A stretch of DNA of 64,000 nt from Rickettsiales bacterium (GTDB lineage: Bacteria; Pseudomonadota; Alphaproteobacteria; Rickettsiales; JAJNBL01): contig JAJNBL010000002.1 of assembly GCA_021156175.1 (NCBI GenBank), forward strand, positions 197,029 through 261,028. Direction: 5' to 3'. The position numbers and the translations under genes were made by a program. Each line of letters opens with the position of its first letter. The stretch's first letter is position 1. This document shows, piece after piece, positions 11,110 to 52,869 of the stretch. The notes below the pieces were generated by a model, which saw nothing but the letters and a program-made list of their open reading frames with translations, searched no databases and had not been told where the DNA came from.

Positions 11110-11685
11110 ATGTCCCCCAAACTCCTTTTCCTCTCTGGCAGTATCCGCAAAGAATCCTTCAACAGCAAACTCATCCGCGAAGCTGTCGCTCTCGCAAAAG
11201 AAGCGGGGGCGAAGGTCACCTTGATTGATTTAAAAGATTTCCCCATGCCCATCTATAATGGCGATCTGGAAGCCGAATCTGGTCTGCCTGAATCCGCCAA
11301 GAAGCTCAAAAAACTGTTTATTGAGCATACAGGCTTTATGATTGCCTCACCGGAATATAACAGCTCAATTTCGCCACTGCTTAAAAACTCACTCGACTGG
11401 ATTTCCCGGAAAGAAACTCCCGATGAGCCAGGCCTTATTGCTTTCACGGGAAAAGTCGCTGGCTTAGTTGCTGCCTCCACCGGTGGCTTCGGCGGTCTTC
11501 GCGGCCTTGTCCCGCTTCGTATGATGCTGAGTAATATCGGCGTATTCGTAATTCCAAGTCAACTTGCGATCCCTTTTGCCGATAAGGCTTTTGACGCCGA
11601 AGGCAAATTCGTTGAATCCAAACAACGCGAATCCTTACGTGGTGTGGTGAAGCAATTTATCGAGACAGCAAAGAAGTTTGCGTAA
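11110..11685 (+). CDS. NAD(P)H-dependent FMN reductase family protein
   Basis: 191 aa; LLFLSGSIRKESFNSKL N-terminus and EYNSSISPLLKNSLDW motif of the flavodoxin-like FMN reductase family. Confidence 0.8.
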   Translation: MSPKLLFLSGSIRKESFNSKLIREAVALAKEAGAKVTLIDLKDFPMPIYNGDLEAESGLPESAKKLKKLFIEHTGFMIASPEYNSSISPLLKNSLDWISRKETPDEPGLIAFTGKVAGLVAASTGGFGGLRGLVPLRMMLSNIGVFVIPSQLAIPFADKAFDAEGKFVESKQRESLRGVVKQFIETAKKFA

Positions 11686-11737
11686 TCATAAACCTTCCGA
11701 TATTATGCCTTGTTCTCGTATTTATAAGGTTCTGTGG

Positions 11738-11862
11738 AGATTCAAAAAAATCATGAGGTGATTTTTAGGAATTTTCGCACGCAGAGCCGCAGTGTACATA
11801 AAAGTACATGAGGATTCGAGTACGAAAATGACGCAAAAATTGACCATGAGAATTTGAATATC
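11738..11862. repeat. diverged family-A-like nested palindrome (copy A5)
   Basis: Outer inverted repeat GAGATTCAAA / TTTGAATATC; inner arms AATTTTCG / CGAAAAT. Core GTGTACATAAAAGTACAT (11792-11809) resembles the A core. Confidence 0.5.
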
Positions 11863-11873
11863 TTGGAACCTAT

Positions 11874-12863
11874 ATGACAGAACATTCTTTTTTCCTCGAA
11901 TCCCCGACCGTAACCGTATCAGTACGCGACGTATTTGGCATTGATTCTGACCTCGAGGTCAAAGCCTTTAGCCAACCCAACGAATACGTACCAGAAATTG
12001 ATGCGGCCTATCGCTTTGATCGCGATACGACGTTAGCGATTCTGGCGGGATTCAGCCATAATCGCCGTGTGATGATCCAAGGTTATCACGGCACGGGGAA
12101 ATCCACCCATATCGAACAAGTCGCAGCACGCCTTAATTGGCCATGTATTCGGGTCAACCTCGATGGGAACATCACCCGGATTGATTTGATCGGGAAAGAT
12201 GCCATTACGCTCAAAGACGGCAAACAAATCACGGAATTCCGCCAAGGGATTATCCCGTGGTCACTGCATCATCCGGTCGCGCTCGTATTTGATGAATACG
12301 ATGCTGCACGCCCTGATGTGATGTTCATTTTACAACGATTGTTGGAACTCGATGGCAAATTCACACTGCTCGATCAAAACCGTGTGATTCGCCCGCACGC
12401 CTATTTCCGCCTTTTTGCAACGGCCAATACAATTGGCTTGGGCGATACGACCGGCCTTTATCACGGCACACAGCCCATCAACCAAGGCCAAATGGACCGC
12501 TGGAATATCGTCGCAACGCTGAATTATTTGCCCGCTGCGGAAGAAGAGCGCATCGTACTGGCAAAGTCGCCTTCGTATAATTCTACGGAAGGCAAAAAGC
12601 AGATCAGCCAAATGGTGGCGATTGCGGATCTCACCCGCCAAGGCTTTATCGCTGGCGATATTTCCTGCCTGATGTCTCCTCGCACCGTCATCACCTGGGC
12701 AGAGAATGCTCGTATTTTCGGTGATGCCGATACCGCTTTCCGTTTAACGTTCCTCAATAAATGTGATGAAATGGAGCGGAGCATCATTGCGGAATATTAC
12801 CAGCGCTGTTTTGGCAAGGAGCTAAACGGCTTCACAACCACAAAAGAAACGATGTTGGCGTAA
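11874..12863 (+). CDS. cobS: CobS-type AAA+ (MoxR-like) ATPase
   Basis: 329 aa; Walker [14 protein letters not shown], Walker [12 protein letters not shown]; followed by its VWA partner. Confidence 0.85.
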
Positions 12864-16961: not shown

Positions 16962-17016
16962 GGGAGACCTCTTGTCTTACGAATGGAACTGAGGTTTAAA
17001 TTTCCTAACACCTGAC

Positions 17017-17095
17017 GAAAAAAGGAGATTTCAAGACCTGTAGCGGAGCGTACCTTAAGGTACGTAAGCAACAGCAGCTTAAAAATCTCCTTTTT
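17017..17095. repeat. family A short form (copy A3)
   Basis: Core GAGCGTACCTTAAGGTACGTAAGC (17047-17069), flanked by GAAAAAAGGAGATTT ... AAATCTCCTTTTT arms. Confidence 0.7.
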
Positions 17096-17115
17096 GCAGT
17101 CCGTGACAGTAGAAT

Positions 17116-18519
17116 TTAAATATGAATCGCTTTGGAGAAGGCTGCTAGCGCTGCTTCTTTCACGGCTTCCGACAAATCCGGATGCGAGTGGCAGGTCCGC
17201 GCGATATCTTCCGAAGAGGCTTTATATTCCATCCCCAGCACCAATTCCGCCAAAAGCACACCGGCTTGCGGGCCAATAATATGTGCACCTAAAATCTGAT
17301 CGGTCTTTTTGCACGCGAGGATCTTCACGAATCCATCCGTATCCACGTTTGCACGCGCGCGGCTGTTCGCCAAGAAGGGGAACTTGCCCACATTATACTC
17401 GATCCCGGCTTCTTTAAGCTGCTCTTCGGTTTTACCGACCGCAGCGACTTCCGGATGGGTATAAATCACGCCTGGGACTTTATCATAATCCACGTGCCCT
17501 TTCTGACCCGCCATGATCTCTACCGCTGCAATACCATCTTCTTCGGCTTTATGTGCAAGCATCGGACCTGCAATTACGTCTCCGATCGCATAAATACCTT
17601 TCACATTGGTCTCGAAATGGTGATCAACGTTAATCCGGCCACGTTCGTCCTTTTGTACTCCCGCAGCTTCCAAGCCCAAACCATTTGTAAATGCCCTACG
17701 GCCAATCGCCACCAACACTACATCGGCTTTTAAGTTCTCTGCCGCTCCGCCTTTGGCAGGCTCTAATGTCAAGGTAACCGATTTCCCTGCCACTTTCGCA
17801 CCCGTCACTTTTGTGCCAAGCTTAAATATAACGCCTTGTTTTTCAAGAATTTTTTTGAATTCTTTACTCACTTCACCGTCCGATGTTGGCGCGATACGAT
17901 CCAAATATTCCACGACTGTTACTTCCGATCCCAAACGACGCCATACCGAGCCAAGCTCCAGGCCAATCACGCCCCCGCCAATCACCACCAATTTCTTTGG
18001 CACTTCCGATAACTCCAGCGCGCCGGTCGAAGACACAATCCGGTCTTCGTCAATCTCTACACCCGGGAGCGGCATCACTTCCGAACCCGTCGCAATCAGG
18101 ATGCGTTTGGTTTTAATAATATCCGATGCACCTTTCTCACCTTTCACTTCGACTTCGCCTGCGGATTTAATAATCCCGGTGCCTTTCAAATAGGTAATTT
18201 TGTTTTTCTTGAATAAGCCTTCGATGCCTTTGGTGAGGTTGGAAACTACGTTATCTTTGTTCCCCATCATCGCTTTAAGATCAAGCTCTAAGCCTTTGAT
18301 TTTAATCCCATGCCCTGCAAAATGCTTGCTCGCATCTTCAAATTTTTCTGAAGAATTCAATAGCGCTTTTGACGGAATACAGCCCACATTCAAGCACGTT
18401 CCACCCAATACTCCACGTTTCTCCACGCACGCGACATTCATCCCCAATTGCGCCGCTTTAATTGCTGCAACATAACCGCCAGGGCCACCGCCAATTACTA
18501 CGAGATCAAATGTCGTCAT
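17116..18519 (-). CDS. lpdA: dihydrolipoyl dehydrogenase (E3)
   Basis: 467 aa; FAD motif GGGPGGY and redox-active [13 protein letters not shown]. Confidence 0.96.
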
Positions 18520-38742: not shown

Positions 38743-38783
38743 CGCTCTTTACTTTCTGTTAAAACGCAATTATGGCGAGGGAT

Positions 38784-38863
38784 TTTTTTGAAATCAGGTT
38801 CTTAAAAAGCGGAGCGTACTTAAAGGTACGTGAGCATTATTTAGGGTTCTGATTTCGAAAAAA
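38784..38863. repeat. family A short form (copy A4)
   Basis: Core GAGCGTACTTAAAGGTACGTGAGC (38813-38835), flanked by TTTTTTGAAATCAGG... / ...CTGATTTCGAAAAAA arms. Confidence 0.7.
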
Positions 38864-45752: not shown

Positions 45753-45813
45753 AATATATTTACCCCCACCCAAATTCTGCTAGGATGCAGCCGAAATACC
45801 TTAAGATAACGTA

Positions 45814-45935
45814 CTTTTCGCTAGGCTGAGCCGGAAAATAGTAATTTTCCTAAAGCCGGAGCAGAGCGTACTTAAGGGTACGTGAGCACAGGAAGTTAGG
45901 AAAATTACTAGTTAACGGCCAGCATAGTAGAAAAG
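45814..45935. repeat. family A long form (copy A2)
   Basis: Same ends and core as 1437-1558. Arm TAGTAATTTTCC (45839-45850) pairs perfectly with GGAAAATTACTA (45899-45910). Confidence 0.75.
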
Positions 45936-47955: not shown

Positions 47956-50900
47956 CTATTCCGCATTTCGTTGGGAAACCGCACAAATTGCTTCCACCCG
48001 TTTCGCTGCCACGACTAACATCGCGCTGTCAATATGCTCAGATGATTTAAGATCATTCACAAATTGATCGTAACGCGAAATCTCTTTGTTATTCGCCTCA
48101 CACCAATTCGCAACCGCTGTTAAGCAAAATACATCATTGCAATTATGTTTGATGACTTCTGCGGTCAGGCGCATTTGCTGATCGTACATATCTTCCGTCA
48201 ACATGCGCAAGGACAGACGATCCCAGTAGCCTTCTGCGGGTTGTTCGGCAATGTAAGAACGCAAGAGCCCAAGGCTTAAACGGCCACCGAGTTCGAAATA
48301 GATCTTCCCTACGGCATCGACGGGTAACGCACCATTTTGCGCCACTTTCACGATGTCGCACGCAGAGGCAAGTACGCCCAATCCTGCGATTTGACGCGCC
48401 AGTGTCTCCGGCACGCCCGCTTCGTGATAACGCGTAAAGCGTGCACGGTAATGTTTCATCGCGATGGGCGACAACAAGGTCTCTAGTGCGCTTGACAGCG
48501 TTTTCACGCCGGCAGCATAAACGTCCACGAGCTTCGCCACTTGCAGAGGCTGGCTATGGTTACGCAAGAACCACATGGCGTTACGTTCGATAAGTTTCTG
48601 GATTTCCAGGAAAAGCTCCACACCAATCGCGACCGGAACGGTTTCATCCAATGCTTCAATATCATCCCATAACGTCCTTAAACCAAAGGCATCGCGGGTG
48701 ATCGCATAGGCACGGGCAACATCACATCCTTTCATGCCGGTATCTTCCATCAAACTATGGAAGAAGGTAATGCCTGCACGGTTGACGATGCTGTTGGTCA
48801 CATGGGATGCGATAATTTCACGACGCAGCGGATGGGAAGTCAGTGCTTCCGGGAAACGTTCGCGCATTTGGGTTGGGAAATAAATCAGCAAATCTTCCAT
48901 GAAATAAGATTCATCGCCAAGATTCGATGGCAATAGATCCGTATAGATGGATTGTTTCGAGTACGAAAGAAGGATCGCAAGTTCAGGGCGGGTAAGGCCA
49001 CTTTTCTCCGCTTTTCTCCGTGCGATGACATGGCTATCAGGCAAGAACTCGATTTTGCGGTTTAAAAGCTTCTTAGACTCCAGGCGGGTCATGAGGCGCT
49101 CTTGTTGCTCAAGCTGACTATGGCCTTGAAGCTCTGCAACAGTCAAGGCCTGGGCCTGAAGCTCGTTATCACGGAGTACGAGGCGTGCCACTTCATCCGT
49201 CATTTCTTCAAGCAAGGTATTGCGTGCCGCTTGGGTAAGCTTTTTGGATTGTACCAATCCACCCAAAGCGATTTTGATATTCACCTCATGGTCAGAGCAA
49301 TCCACACCTGCGGAGTTATCAATAAAGTCGGTATTAATCCGGCCACCTTTTAAAGCGTATTCGATACGGCCTTTTTGGGTAACGCCCAGATTTCCGCCTT
49401 CGCCCACGGCTTTACAGCGAAGCTCGTGGCCGTTGATACGTAAATTATCGTTGGCTTTATCGCCTACATCCGCATGGCCTTCATCCGCCGATTTGATATA
49501 GGTCCCAATACCGCCGTTCCACAAGAGATCCACCGGCGCTTTCAAAATCGCACGGATGAGTTCATCAGGAGTAAGGGCATCTTCTTCGATATCCAGGCGC
49601 GCTTTGACTTCCGCAGTCAAAGGAATCGATTTTGCCGAACGTTCAAATATTCCGCCGCCTTGTGAGATCAAGGATGCATTATAATCCTTCCAGGTCGAGC
49701 GTGGGAGATTGAAGAGGCGTTTGCGCTCATCAAAACTCTTTGCTGCATCTGGGTTTGGATCAAGGAAGATATGTATATGGTTAAATGCCGCAACGAGGCG
49801 GATATGACGGGAAAGCAACATCCCGTTGCCAAATACGTCGCCCGCCATGTCACCAATCCCGGTGACAGTGAAATCGGTGGTTTGGGTGTTGATACCCATT
49901 TCTTTGAAGTGACGCTGAACAGAAACCCATCCACCGCGCGCAGTAATCGCCATTTTCTTATGGTCATATCCTGCAGAACCACCTGAGGCAAACGCATCGC
50001 CAAGCCAGAATCCGTAAGCTGCGGAAACGCTATTCGCGATATCGGAGAAGGATGCCGTCCCTTTATCCGCCGCGACTACCAAATATGGATCATCTGCATC
50101 ATGACGTACGACTTGTTTTGGTGGGACAACCGCACCGTTTATAATGTTATCCGTGATGTCAAGCAAACCGCTCAAGAACGTTTTGTAGCAGGCAATCCCT
50201 TCTTGTAGATAGGCTTCACGTCCGCCTTCCTGAGGGGGTTGTTTCACAACGAAGCCACCTTTAGAGCCAACAGGTACGATCACCGCGTTTTTGGTCATCT
50301 GTGCCTTCATGAGGCCCAATACTTCGGTGCGGAAATCTTCCGCACGGTCAGACCACCGCAAACCACCGCGGGCGACTTTACCGCCGCGCAAGTGAATTCC
50401 TTCCACACGCGAAGAATAGACGAAAATCTCAGCGTACGGCCGTGGCAATGGCAGGCCTGGCACAAGAGCAGAATCGAATTTGAAGGAGATATAGGCTTTG
50501 TGTACGTTCTCGTTGTCGCCCGATTGGAAATAATTGGTACGCAATGTCGCCAGGATTAAGTCCATATAACGGCGGATAATGCGGTCATCCGTCACATCGG
50601 AAACAGACGCAAGTGCGGCTTCAATTTCCTGCTGCAAGGTTTCCATCACGCTCACGCGGTCTTGCTTATTTGATGGGTCAAATCGTGCATCGAACAAGGC
50701 AACCAGTTTACGTGTAATGCCAGGATGGCGGCTCAGGGTTTGTTCAACAGAGGTTTGGCTATAGGTGAAACCAATCTGGCGCAAATATTTCGCATAAGCG
50801 CGCACTAATACGACTTGGCTCCATGCAAGGCCGGCACAGAGAATAAGTTGGTTAAACCCATCATTTTGCACTTCGCGTTCCCAGACTTTTGACAGCAAGG

Positions 50901-52869
50901 ATTCAAAGTTATCTTTAATATCTTGAATTTTCGGGCGAATTTGACCATCTGGAGGTGTCAATCGGAAATGGTGAACCCATACGGCCTGTTTGCCCTTTGG
51001 TGCCACTTTATAGGTATGCTCATCGATAATCGGGAAGCCCATATTTTCGAGGATTGGCATGATGTCCGAAAGGCGAAGCTGTTTTTCGCACGAGTAGATT
51101 TTCAGCTGCAACCAATCTTTATCATTGTCGTTAGTCTCATAGAGATCAAACAGAATGCCGCCTTGGGCATACATGCGTTCCATGCTTTTGATATCCCAAT
51201 AGGCATGGTAGGCAGTAAAGCGCTCGCAATAAGCTGCAGAGAAGGCTTCCGCATAGGTTTCAAATAATTTCTCGCGTTGGCCCTCATCGGCTTTTTGCGC
51301 GATCTCATCTTTTAAAGTATCTCCCCAAATCCGTGCGACTTCCGCGAGTTTGGCTTCTACATCGGTGATATCGTAGGCGGGAATCGCGCCCGGTTCGGTT
51401 TTCACAATCAGGTTAAGGCGAGCGAAAGGCGAATCGGTAACTTGGGTATAATAGTTGACCACATCGCCGTTAAACGCTTGCTCAAGCACGATCTGAATTT
51501 TCTTCCGAAGACCGGTGCTGAAGCGTTCCCGTGGGATAAACAGGATGCAGCTGATAAAGCGCTCAAATTTATCTTTGCGCGCGAATAACCGCACCCGGCG
51601 TTGAACCGCAAGCGACACAATTCCCATACAGGTTTCAAACAATTCGTCTTCCGAAATTTGGAAGAGCTCATCGCGCGGGAAGGATTCCAGCGCAGATGCA
51701 AGTTCCTTGCCGCTATAGCCGCCTTTCGGGAAGCCAGCACGGTTGAGTACGGAAGCCATTTTCTGGCGGATCATTGGAATATGGTCCGCACTTTGGTAAT
51801 ACACGATCGAGGTGAATAATCCGCGGAAACGGTGCTCCCCAATCACATTCCCTGACGCATCAAAGCGTTTGATGCTGATATCGTCCATATGAATAGGGCG
51901 ATGGATCACGGAACGGTTAGATTTGGTAATCTCAACGAAGTTCGGATTGCGTAAGAAATGCTGCACCTCTTTTGGGACGAGCTGGACGCTTTTTTGGCTT
52001 TCGTCCTTTAATATCCCAAGCTCATGGCTGCTTTTGATATCAAGCCCTTTGCCGGTCTCGACAAAATCATATTGGGCATAGCCCAAGAAAATAAAGTTCT
52101 TATCGCAAAGCCAGCGGATGAAATCTTGGGTCTCCGCGAGGTAATTTTCAGCAGAAACAGGACTTTCCGGGGTATAATGTTTTTTCAAAGCAGGAAGGGC
52201 GGATTCGGTTTCTTTTAACATCGATTCTGCTTGCGCAAGCATCGCCTTCCAGTCTTCCACGGCTTGGCGGATGGTGCTTAAGGTGTGACGAATATCCGCC
52301 GATACTTCTTCCAAGAAGACCGGATCATGAATGGCGGCCACACGGAAATGGATCACCGATTCTGCCGAGCCTTTAGGACTCGCGCCTGTGCCATTGGTGG
52401 ATTCAGCCGCGGGGTATATGGTTTCTAGTGCGCCCTTCGCATTCCGAGAAACGCGCAAGACTGGATGCAAAATACACTGAATTTGCAGGCGGTGGCGAGT
52501 TAAAGCCTCCGTGCAGGAATCCACTAAGAACGGCATATCATCATTGATGACTTCAATCACCGTATAAGGCCCGGTCCATCCATGTTCTTTGACAGAAGGA
52601 TTATAAACCCGGAGAGAGGGGGTATTGGGGGTGCGGGATTTTAAGAAATTAAAGCTAGAGCGGGCAATGGCGGCGAGTTCAGAAGGGCTAAATACGGCGA
52701 TATCGTCTTTCGGAGTTCGCAAATAGAGTTGTCGCGCAAACTCTGCCGCGTCGCCTTTTTCTTTAAAAACTGTCAGGATTTCCCCGATCAGTGGGCTGTT
52801 TGCAGTTAAATAACTCGTTGTGGAAGGAGACGTAATGGTCTCGTCAGTTGCGCGTTTTTCCTTAGCCAT
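47956..52869 (-). CDS. gdh: NAD-specific glutamate dehydrogenase, large (~180 kDa) class
   Basis: 1637 aa, a size characteristic of the giant NAD-GDH family. Central ELFV-dehydrogenase-like region (VPVGSKGGFV..., GDMAGDVFGNGML). Confidence 0.9.
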   Translation of the reverse strand: MAKEKRATDETITSPSTTSYLTANSPLIGEILTVFKEKGDAAEFARQLYLRTPKDDIAVFSPSELAAIARSSFNFLKSRTPNTPSLRVYNPSVKEHGWTGPYTVIEVINDDMPFLVDSCTEALTRHRLQIQCILHPVLRVSRNAKGALETIYPAAESTNGTGASPKGSAESVIHFRVAAIHDPVFLEEVSADIRHTLSTIRQAVEDWKAMLAQAESMLKETESALPALKKHYTPESPVSAENYLAETQDFIRWLCDKNFIFLGYAQYDFVETGKGLDIKSSHELGILKDESQKSVQLVPKEVQHFLRNPNFVEITKSNRSVIHRPIHMDDISIKRFDASGNVIGEHRFRGLFTSIVYYQSADHIPMIRQKMASVLNRAGFPKGGYSGKELASALESFPRDELFQISEDELFETCMGIVSLAVQRRVRLFARKDKFERFISCILFIPRERFSTGLRKKIQIVLEQAFNGDVVNYYTQVTDSPFARLNLIVKTEPGAIPAYDITDVEAKLAEVARIWGDTLKDEIAQKADEGQREKLFETYAEAFSAAYCERFTAYHAYWDIKSMERMYAQGGILFDLYETNDNDKDWLQLKIYSCEKQLRLSDIMPILENMGFPIIDEHTYKVAPKGKQAVWVHHFRLTPPDGQIRPKIQDIKDNFESLLSKVWEREVQNDGFNQLILCAGLAWSQVVLVRAYAKYLRQIGFTYSQTSVEQTLSRHPGITRKLVALFDARFDPSNKQDRVSVMETLQQEIEAALASVSDVTDDRIIRRYMDLILATLRTNYFQSGDNENVHKAYISFKFDSALVPGLPLPRPYAEIFVYSSRVEGIHLRGGKVARGGLRWSDRAEDFRTEVLGLMKAQMTKNAVIVPVGSKGGFVVKQPPQEGGREAYLQEGIACYKTFLSGLLDITDNIINGAVVPPKQVVRHDADDPYLVVAADKGTASFSDIANSVSAAYGFWLGDAFASGGSAGYDHKKMAITARGGWVSVQRHFKEMGINTQTTDFTVTGIGDMAGDVFGNGMLLSRHIRLVAAFNHIHIFLDPNPDAAKSFDERKRLFNLPRSTWKDYNASLISQGGGIFERSAKSIPLTAEVKARLDIEEDALTPDELIRAILKAPVDLLWNGGIGTYIKSADEGHADVGDKANDNLRINGHELRCKAVGEGGNLGVTQKGRIEYALKGGRINTDFIDNSAGVDCSDHEVNIKIALGGLVQSKKLTQAARNTLLEEMTDEVARLVLRDNELQAQALTVAELQGHSQLEQQERLMTRLESKKLLNRKIEFLPDSHVIARRKAEKSGLTRPELAILLSYSKQSIYTDLLPSNLGDESYFMEDLLIYFPTQMRERFPEALTSHPLRREIIASHVTNSIVNRAGITFFHSLMEDTGMKGCDVARAYAITRDAFGLRTLWDDIEALDETVPVAIGVELFLEIQKLIERNAMWFLRNHSQPLQVAKLVDVYAAGVKTLSSALETLLSPIAMKHYRARFTRYHEAGVPETLARQIAGLGVLASACDIVKVAQNGALPVDAVGKIYFELGGRLSLGLLRSYIAEQPAEGYWDRLSLRMLTEDMYDQQMRLTAEVIKHNCNDVFCLTAVANWCEANNKEISRYDQFVNDLKSSEHIDSAMLVVAAKRVEAICAVSQRNAE

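Follow-up and report, generated by a model that had tools for sequence, protein, structure and literature searches.

Two hairpins in the 64-kb stretch of DNA analyzed here (the window), one downstream of lpdA and one downstream of thiE, present the same core of ~30 nt at their tips, and the question they raise is whether a small mobile sequence has settled in the loops of resident terminators or whether each hairpin arrived as a whole. The earlier note described the arms at both sites as ordinary bidirectional intrinsic terminators, unrelated to the arms of a longer form found elsewhere in the window, and proposed either that the core alone is mobile or that the apical motif may be presented on any long stem. 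Both short forms have the sequences and positions that it quoted. The two sites are copies of a hairpin-forming repeat, not ordinary terminators invaded by a mobile core, and as loci they represent a known kind of element; the breadth of their family and its tie to the enterobacterial repeat ERIC are the interesting part.

A search of the window for GCGGAGCGTAC-N5-GGTACG with at most 3 mismatches returned matches at 1485, 17043, 38809, and 45861, all on the + strand; shuffled sequences gave an expectation of 0.10 matches, and none of 100 shuffles reached four. The core is real, with four intact copies and one degenerate copy against 0.1 expected by chance. The features are listed here with the evidence for each in parentheses.

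17002 to 17114, + strand: probable full inserted unit of short form 1, 113 nt (fold, arm alignment, and TTTAAAT bounds)
About 17012 to 17099, + strand: hairpin proper of short form 1 (fold)
17043 to 17070, + strand: apical core of short form 1, GC-G-GA-GCGUAC(C)-UUAA-(G)GUACGU-AA-GC-A (model R1, 54.5 bits, E = 1e-11)
16995 to 17001, no strand: left copy of TTTAAAT, a candidate target-site duplication (chance of a shared flanking 7-mer, ~1.5 to 3%)
17115 to 17121, no strand: right copy of TTTAAAT, overlapping the lpdA stop codon at 17116 to 17118
38783 to 38863, + strand: short form 2, divergent, with T7-stem...stem-A6 arms (fold; R1, 44.9 bits)
38809 to 38836, + strand: core of short form 2 (pattern match; R1)
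1437 to 1558, + strand: long form 1, between fliE and fliQ, with its core at 1485 to 1512 (fold; R1, 56.4 bits)
45812 to 45935, + strand: long form 2, between eda and tsaD, with its core at 45861 to 45888 (fold; R1, 58.9 bits)
11730 to 11868, + strand: fifth, degenerate copy, a 139-nt hairpin (R1, 15.3 bits, E = 0.1; fold)

All five copies in the window are single long hairpins of 80 to 139 nt with the core at the tip. The short forms, for which this layout had been predicted, fold at -33.1 and -32.9 kcal/mol (z = -5.1 and -6.6), and short form 2 folds at -32.9 kcal/mol on the + strand and at -17.1 on the - strand. Long form 2 carries an A in place of the bulged G of the core. In the fifth copy, which folds at -40.7 kcal/mol (z = -5.2), the covariance model match spans 11770 to 11831, and the apex reads GUGUAC-AUAAAA-GUACAU, with a compensated change from C-G to U-A. 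This copy sits between open reading frames at 11110 to 11685 and 11874 to 12863, and its ends, GGTTCTGTGGAGATTCAAA and TTTGAATATCTTGGAACC, contain a GANTC site.

The assignment of the two short forms to the regions downstream of lpdA (TIGR01350, 572 bits) and thiE (TIGR00693, 149 bits) stands, with folC and gloB as the second neighbors at sites 1 and 2, respectively. Because the flanking genes at both sites lie on the - strand, the core would appear in their mRNAs as its complement. The genes that flank the five copies differ in strand, although every copy is on the + strand. GC skew passes from negative to positive at ~30 to 33 kb in the window, possibly at an origin or terminus of replication; in that case, the five copies have no common orientation relative to replication. 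The gene content of the window is alphaproteobacterial, and NCBI assigns an LpdA protein identical to that of the window to a Rickettsiales MAG. The window's largest open reading frame encodes 1,637 amino acids (47956 to 52869, - strand).

The resemblance to intrinsic terminators is confined to one site. The A-tract, stem, and T-tract described for both hairpins are present at site 1, where the stem is flanked by A6 and T5 as in a terminator, but at site 2 the order is the wrong one, T7-stem...stem-A6. What follows the stem at site 2 is A6 on the + strand and A7 on the - strand, tracts that merely lengthen the stem, and with no run of T after the stem on either strand, the hairpin is terminator shaped on neither. 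Site 1 has T5 after the stem on the + strand and T6 on the - strand, yet its stem of ~40 bp is interrupted by internal loops, its apex is conserved, and its A and T tracts are part of CGAAAAnGG...CCnUUUGCAG, a family module seen again in copies from Rhizobiales, Actinomycetota, and Bacillota MAGs. A scan for intrinsic terminators made no call at site 1 or site 2.

Alignments of the arms, scored with the core left out, trace the stem of site 1 to the same family. Its arms match those of ~110-nt elements in Rhizobiales, with z = 7.4 to 8.2 against Rhizobiaceae copies, and the ends of the 113-nt unit, TTCC...GGAA, match those of a copy in Agrobacterium albertimagni. Against the two long forms of the window, the same arms reach only z = 1.9 and 3.7, so the description of the arms as unrelated to the long form is right as a direct comparison; it fails as a statement of ancestry, since the long-form arms in turn match Rhizobiales copies with z = 6 to 8. 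Similarity between the short and long forms also extends ~10 nt past the core on either side. For the arms of site 2, the arms-only alignments found no significant relative, the best match (z = 4.1) being of low complexity.

These comparisons do not support the reading in which the core alone moves into terminator loops. The arms of site 1 are family arms and not a resident terminator, site 2 is not shaped like a terminator, direct repeats lie outside the arms (TTTAAAT at site 1, and whole-element duplications in Paenibacillus), and among the ~240 loci in the matches listed there is no core without arms. The second reading, that any long stem is tolerated if the apex is presented, is borne out by a near-invariant apex, arms that differ, and a stem below the apex that covaries. 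As to orthologous terminators, the comparison that the earlier note had suggested, the nearest relatives of the window organism (LpdA 76 to 81% identical) have no core in 61 kb, and one of them has a plain terminator after lpdA, but synteny downstream of that lpdA is broken, and the terminator is therefore not an empty site.

Beyond the window, a scan for the exact core pattern in one genome per species returned at least 120 loci, with ~50 chance matches to this pattern expected over the whole collection by our arithmetic. In about 119 of the 126 listed loci, a long hairpin carries the core at its tip, with model R1 scores of 35 to 72 bits; L047, L050, L079, L092, and L109 are likely chance matches. 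Among the matches listed, core loci are labeled as six or seven phyla, the labels being those of record titles and many of the records being MAGs. By these titles, the carriers in Rhizobiales include Mesorhizobium, Brucella/Ochrobactrum, Phyllobacterium, Devosia, and others, and other Alphaproteobacteria are represented by Sphingosinicella (Sphingomonadales), Acidocella (Acetobacteraceae), and a Rickettsiales MAG. Carriers also occur in the former delta-proteobacteria (Syntrophales, Smithellaceae, and Polyangiales), in one gammaproteobacterial MAG, in Bacillota (Paenibacillus, with many species, and Desulforudis, Thermoanaerobacteraceae, and Eubacteriales), in Actinomycetota (Coriobacteriales and Solirubrobacteraceae), and in Bacteroidota (Rikenellaceae and Bacteroidales).

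Each copy among the matches listed is one long hairpin; the copies occupy intergenic sites that are unrelated to one another, lie in both orientations, and have no neighboring gene in common. Their orientation relative to flanking open reading frames is close to random in the same set (30 opposite to both genes, 28 along both, 18 between convergent genes, and 12 between divergent genes), with a weak bias against the local GC skew (75 to 51). The 8-kb loci seldom contain a further copy (2 in 756 kb), and the core occurs at 26 places on one 2.7-Mb Paenibacillus replicon. Tandem duplicates in the same orientation were seen in L052 (685 to 893), L117 (two copies 141 nt apart), and L230. Only 10 matches fall on viral contigs, so the element is not enriched in phages. 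Rfam gave no match for the element at the gathering score or at E <= 10 and returned only a tRNA and a tmRNA elsewhere, and a search of paper text for the element's literal sequence found nothing relevant.

The unit of ~80 to 300 nt folds as one long imperfect hairpin whose arms vary in sequence, remain paired, and keep a few internal-loop motifs (CGAAAA / UUUGCAG, CGAG..AGCGCAG, and CAAGGC / AACGC). The apical hairpin, which the earlier note took to be the functional determinant, is its most constrained part and is near-invariant in loci labeled as many phyla: GC-G-GA-GC(G/U)UAC-loop-GUA(C/A)GU-GA-GC-A, a 6-bp stem closed by a G.U pair and standing on two facing GA dinucleotides. Read from the 5' side, the consensus runs through P2, an unpaired A or 1x1 mismatch, GC, a bulged G (sometimes A), GA, and GCGUAC to a loop of 3 to 7 nt that is free in sequence, and it returns through GUACGU, GA, GC, an unpaired A, and P2'.

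Covariation indicates that the pairing below the apex is maintained. P2 shows 49 double-change cells against 11.3 in shuffled alignments, with 0 of 500 shuffles reaching 49 and far lower values in slid controls. The apical stem looked invariant because the search pattern had fixed it. A metagenome scan that kept the frame and substituted ERIC's pair, GCGGAGCTTAC-N3-7-GTAAGTGAGC, found this U-A variant, which differs by one compensatory pair (G-C to U-A), on at least 120 contigs. Its copies are long hairpins with diverse arms, and three of them (L163, L172, and L221) have typical Rhizobiales arms. In the mixed alignment, apical pair 3 is G-C in 29 copies, U-A in 28, and G.U in 1, with no broken pair. 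All variants, ERIC and the decayed fifth copy among them, retain the closing G.U pair and both GA dinucleotides.

Among the matches listed, the sense fold is more stable than the antisense fold in 85 of 97 and 117 of 126 elements. An apparent strand asymmetry of G.U pairs in the arms was not replicated in a nonredundant independent set (7.7% against 7.3%), and the energy difference therefore comes from the core alone. A core that is strand asymmetric and has a loop of free length fits recognition of a folded single strand, and sites for duplex-binding dimers are excluded because loop length varies. Known motifs compared by eye were rejected: a kink-turn (the bulge is 1 nt and not 3, and ERIC has none), a hammerhead core (mismatched at the CUGANGA and GAAA motifs), group II intron domain V (which has a differently paired 3' strand), and the 23S rRNA segment GGUACGYGAGCUGG (a different pairing partner). 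Integron attC R'/R'' sites, dif/Xer sites, and transcription factor palindromes were likewise set aside by eye.

In Paenibacillus, copies measure 166 to 282 nt, contain optional internal modules, and bear signs of insertion as whole units. On either side of them stand direct repeats of 6 to 9 nt that differ by copy, among them TCTATAAG, TCTTTAAG, CTTAAAGT, CTATATGT, TATTAG, and TAATAG, and these repeats are AT-rich target duplications, not parts of the hairpin. At one locus shared by two Paenibacillus species, the copies are ~90% identical and the adjoining gene ~68% identical. Slow evolution in place was considered for this pair and rejected, as the differing duplications (TAAAA versus TAATAG) favor independent insertions. 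TTTAAAT at site 1 is only suggestive as a target duplication, and no clear duplication was seen at the Mesorhizobium copies, the long forms of the window, or site 2. No empty site was recovered, and other assemblies of the window organism show the same intergenic spacing.

The loci searched yielded no autonomous parent with the same termini and no linked transposase; a pair of copies in L051 flanks flagellar genes and not a transposase. The termini GGTTCTGT..., GGCTGTTGAAAAAC, and GGCTGCTGCAAAAC, with duplications of ~8 bp, may resemble IS6/IS26- or ISL3-type ends, a likeness on which we base no claim. [quoted passage not shown] Unlike ordinary MITEs, it is more conserved at its center than at its termini, the reverse of what recognition of terminal repeats would give, and no autonomous insertion sequence with matching termini was present among the loci searched.

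Paenibacillus elements (L002, L016, L019, L023, L045, and others) are also mosaic, with optional modules of ~40 to 75 nt, such as ACCTGAAATGTTTCCGCAGGAAACATGCTTCGGAAGCATC, that enter at fixed internal points and combine freely with two arm types. They resemble the insertions at fixed internal sites reported for ERIC. In Mesorhizobium (for example, L026, L039, L041, L061, and L065), the outermost stem of the 150-nt element varies between copies and stays complementary (GGTGTGT/ACACACC, GGCAGTG/ATGCTGCC, and GAGGTCTGCC/GACAGACCTC), often abutting a stop codon.

The known repeat closest to the family is ERIC (enterobacterial repetitive intergenic consensus, also called IRU or RU-1, 127 bp), which reviews describe only in Enterobacteriaceae and Vibrionaceae, a host range to which the alphaproteobacterial window does not belong, and whose copies are cotranscribed, vary widely in number, and have an unknown transposase (PMC3184786, PMC10969869, PMC2229807). 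A keyword search of the literature found no paper extending ERIC beyond the gamma-proteobacteria. Our ERIC query was a 44-mer made from the ERIC primers, the reverse complement of ERIC1R joined to ERIC2; it matched 5,424 of 5,426 E. coli genomes at a median of 5 places per genome. The E. coli ERIC that separates ybhJ from ybhI folds into a hairpin of 127 nt with the center CCCCAG-GA-GCTTAC-ATAA-GTAAGT-GA-CTGGGG.

Both ERIC and the family form a single long imperfect hairpin with intergenic copies in either orientation, and the central inverted repeat of ERIC, GGAGCTTAC-ATAA-GTAAGTGA, has the same layout of stem, GA, 6 bp with a G.U pair, loop, 6 bp, GA, and stem. Eighteen of 21 positions are identical to the core, and the remaining difference is the compensated pair. 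The core here is framed by an extra GC pair, a bulged G, and an unpaired A, all missing from ERIC, which has TA at its termini where the family has duplications of 6 to 9 nt. By sequence, the link is weak: searches with nhmmer in either direction between ERIC and the family found nothing, and model R1 ranked ERIC fourth in 50 kb of E. coli (E = 1.8). Model R2, built from nonenterobacterial copies of both stem variants, placed it first in 50 kb of E. coli at 23.0 bits (E = 0.0013, a rough value). Global alignment of the ERIC arms gave z = 3.6 to 4.4 against delta-type and Mesorhizobium copies and ~1 against others, with motifs in common in the 5' arm (GCAGGAAGGCG in ERIC, GCGGAAGGCG and GCAAGGCG in the family) and in the 3' arm (AACGCAAACGCAG in ERIC, UAACGCUGCAG in the family). 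As judged from their sequences, ERIC and the family share the apical module, and they very probably have a common origin, for which these motif-level resemblances are evidence and not proof.

A bolder proposal, which we put forward tentatively and would not yet call probable, is that a single superfamily, with ERIC as its trimmed enterobacterial branch, spans Pseudomonadota, Bacillota, Actinomycetota, Bacteroidota, and the former delta-proteobacterial phyla and that its apex, not its termini, is the part recognized. Recognition of the apex would imply a widely conserved partner, either an enzyme that mobilizes a folded strand or a protein that binds RNA or DNA. ERIC has long served as a typing target, yet its mobility and its conserved center lack an explanation, and the proposal, if true, gives a handle on the thirty-year question of what moves ERIC and why its center is conserved. 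A core present in hundreds of genomes labeled as several phyla, together with a compensatory pair, makes this a tractable problem: protein families can be compared across genomes with and without the core, and the apex offers a well-defined bait in pull-downs. With models R1 and R2 it is possible to annotate elements that lie outside any Rfam family, and in the window itself, the tempting tale of terminators colonized by a mobile loop gives way to loci that can be annotated as copies of a repeat element.

Other dispersed palindromes share features with the family without matching it. REP/BIME sequences and REPINs with RAYT are also dispersed extragenic palindromes at the 3' ends of genes, with proposed roles in mRNA stability and termination. 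REPs, however, are 20 to 40 bp with a GTAG or CGTC tag (PMC3733652), and they are lineage specific and coevolve with a linked RAYT gene. The family described here has neither tag in its consensus and no linked gene, and conservation is centered on the apex of a hairpin that measures at least 100 nt.

The palindromic intergenic repeats of the Alphaproteobacteria, namely Bru-RS1/2 of Brucella, CIR of Caulobacter and Brucella, and RIME of Rhizobium, were compared by description only; they measure ~103 to 116 bp and are conserved between genera (PMC10800456, PMC2229807). Our copies from Brucella and Ochrobactrum have the same size, and as in that group, Mesorhizobium copies of our family carry a GANTC site (GAGATTC); CIR is unlike it in being described as two arms joined by a linker and not as one hairpin (PMC2229807). 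Correia/NEMIS, RUP, bcr1, and Rickettsia palindromic elements, also compared by description only, agree with the family in size, hairpin transcripts, target duplications, and variable copy number, but they are confined to a genus or family and conserve their termini.

On balance, we think it somewhat probable that both sites are dispersed copies of a nonautonomous, MITE-type hairpin repeat belonging to a superfamily that includes the enterobacterial ERIC/IRU. A trans-acting enzyme would insert the whole unit and leave a short AT-rich target duplication, and the inserted element would be cotranscribed with its neighbors in whatever orientation it had landed, with no role beyond that of any stable hairpin. 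The copy at site 1 would be terminator-like in both directions by virtue of A and T tracts that belong to the family, and it could stop or stabilize transcripts either way. The apex would be conserved because copies need it for propagation or recognition and not because terminators need it. The degenerate fifth copy represents decay in place, and a host function that depends on a sense apex at each site is hard to reconcile with copies oriented at random to the genes.

The alternative that fares best, although we consider it unlikely, is that the apex is a host-selected, cis-acting RNA module that binds a protein or nuclease and sets mRNA 3' ends or stability, so that any long stem could present it and copies would be retained as beneficial to the cell. 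Extreme conservation of the apex with a compensated pair, covariation in the stem below it, more stable sense folds, and the location of copies between cistrons or just past stop codons are all in keeping with such a role, and copies of ERIC in Yersinia are reported to alter mRNA decay via RNase E (PMC3184786, PMC2229807) in an orientation-dependent manner (PMC2229807). However, with 28 copies along both flanking genes and 30 opposite to both among the matches listed, some half of the host transcripts would contain the complementary strand, with neither the GA/GA nor the G.U features, and both short forms of the window fall in this class. The patchy, lineage-specific distribution of copies, the target duplications that they carry, the decay of one copy in the window, and the lack of strand asymmetry in the G.U pairs of the arms in the nonredundant set also speak against it.

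We regard as quite improbable a route in which the elements spread as single strands of fixed polarity, whether hairpin DNA processed by an HUH-type enzyme or RNA copied back into DNA, with the apex as that enzyme's recognition site. Such a route would make sense of a strand-asymmetric core (GA/GA, G.U, and the bulged G and A) with a loop free at 3 to 7 nt, of a center more conserved than the termini, and of AT-rich targets with duplications of variable length. Known HUH elements, however, leave no target duplication, the loci searched contain no linked reverse transcriptase or HUH gene, the bias against local GC skew is weak, and the arms show no strand asymmetry; in addition, no short bacterial element is known to be retrotransposed. 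We give hardly any credence to the idea that only the ~30-nt core hairpin is mobile or copied by conversion into the loops of existing terminators or palindromes, because the arm homology at site 1, tracts included, the direct repeats around whole hairpins, the shape of site 2, the consistent presence of arms among the loci listed, and the long-form similarity that runs past the core weigh against it more than the arms of site 2, the plain terminator after lpdA in one relative, or four metagenome copies with one arm exchanged weigh in its favor.

In those four copies (L173, L224, L233, and L237), the 5' arm is replaced by a small unrelated hairpin, AAGTGCCAGTA...ACTGGCACT, that abuts the core, and they may be truncated or recombined elements. 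Two Mesorhizobium copies are altered on the other side: one (L014, ~575 to 600) is interrupted immediately 3' of the core by TCAGTTCTACTGCGACGCAGTAGAAC, a palindrome of 26 nt, and the other (L043, after 1070) has its 3' arm replaced by unrelated sequence. The element may itself be a target for insertion, as has been reported for Bru-RS1, which can carry IS711. In two Paenibacillus species, a conserved block, TTTTTGGGTAATCTTGAGAA, lies just upstream of the element (L071, 5053 to 5072, and L113), and the rest of the upstream region is unrelated between them.
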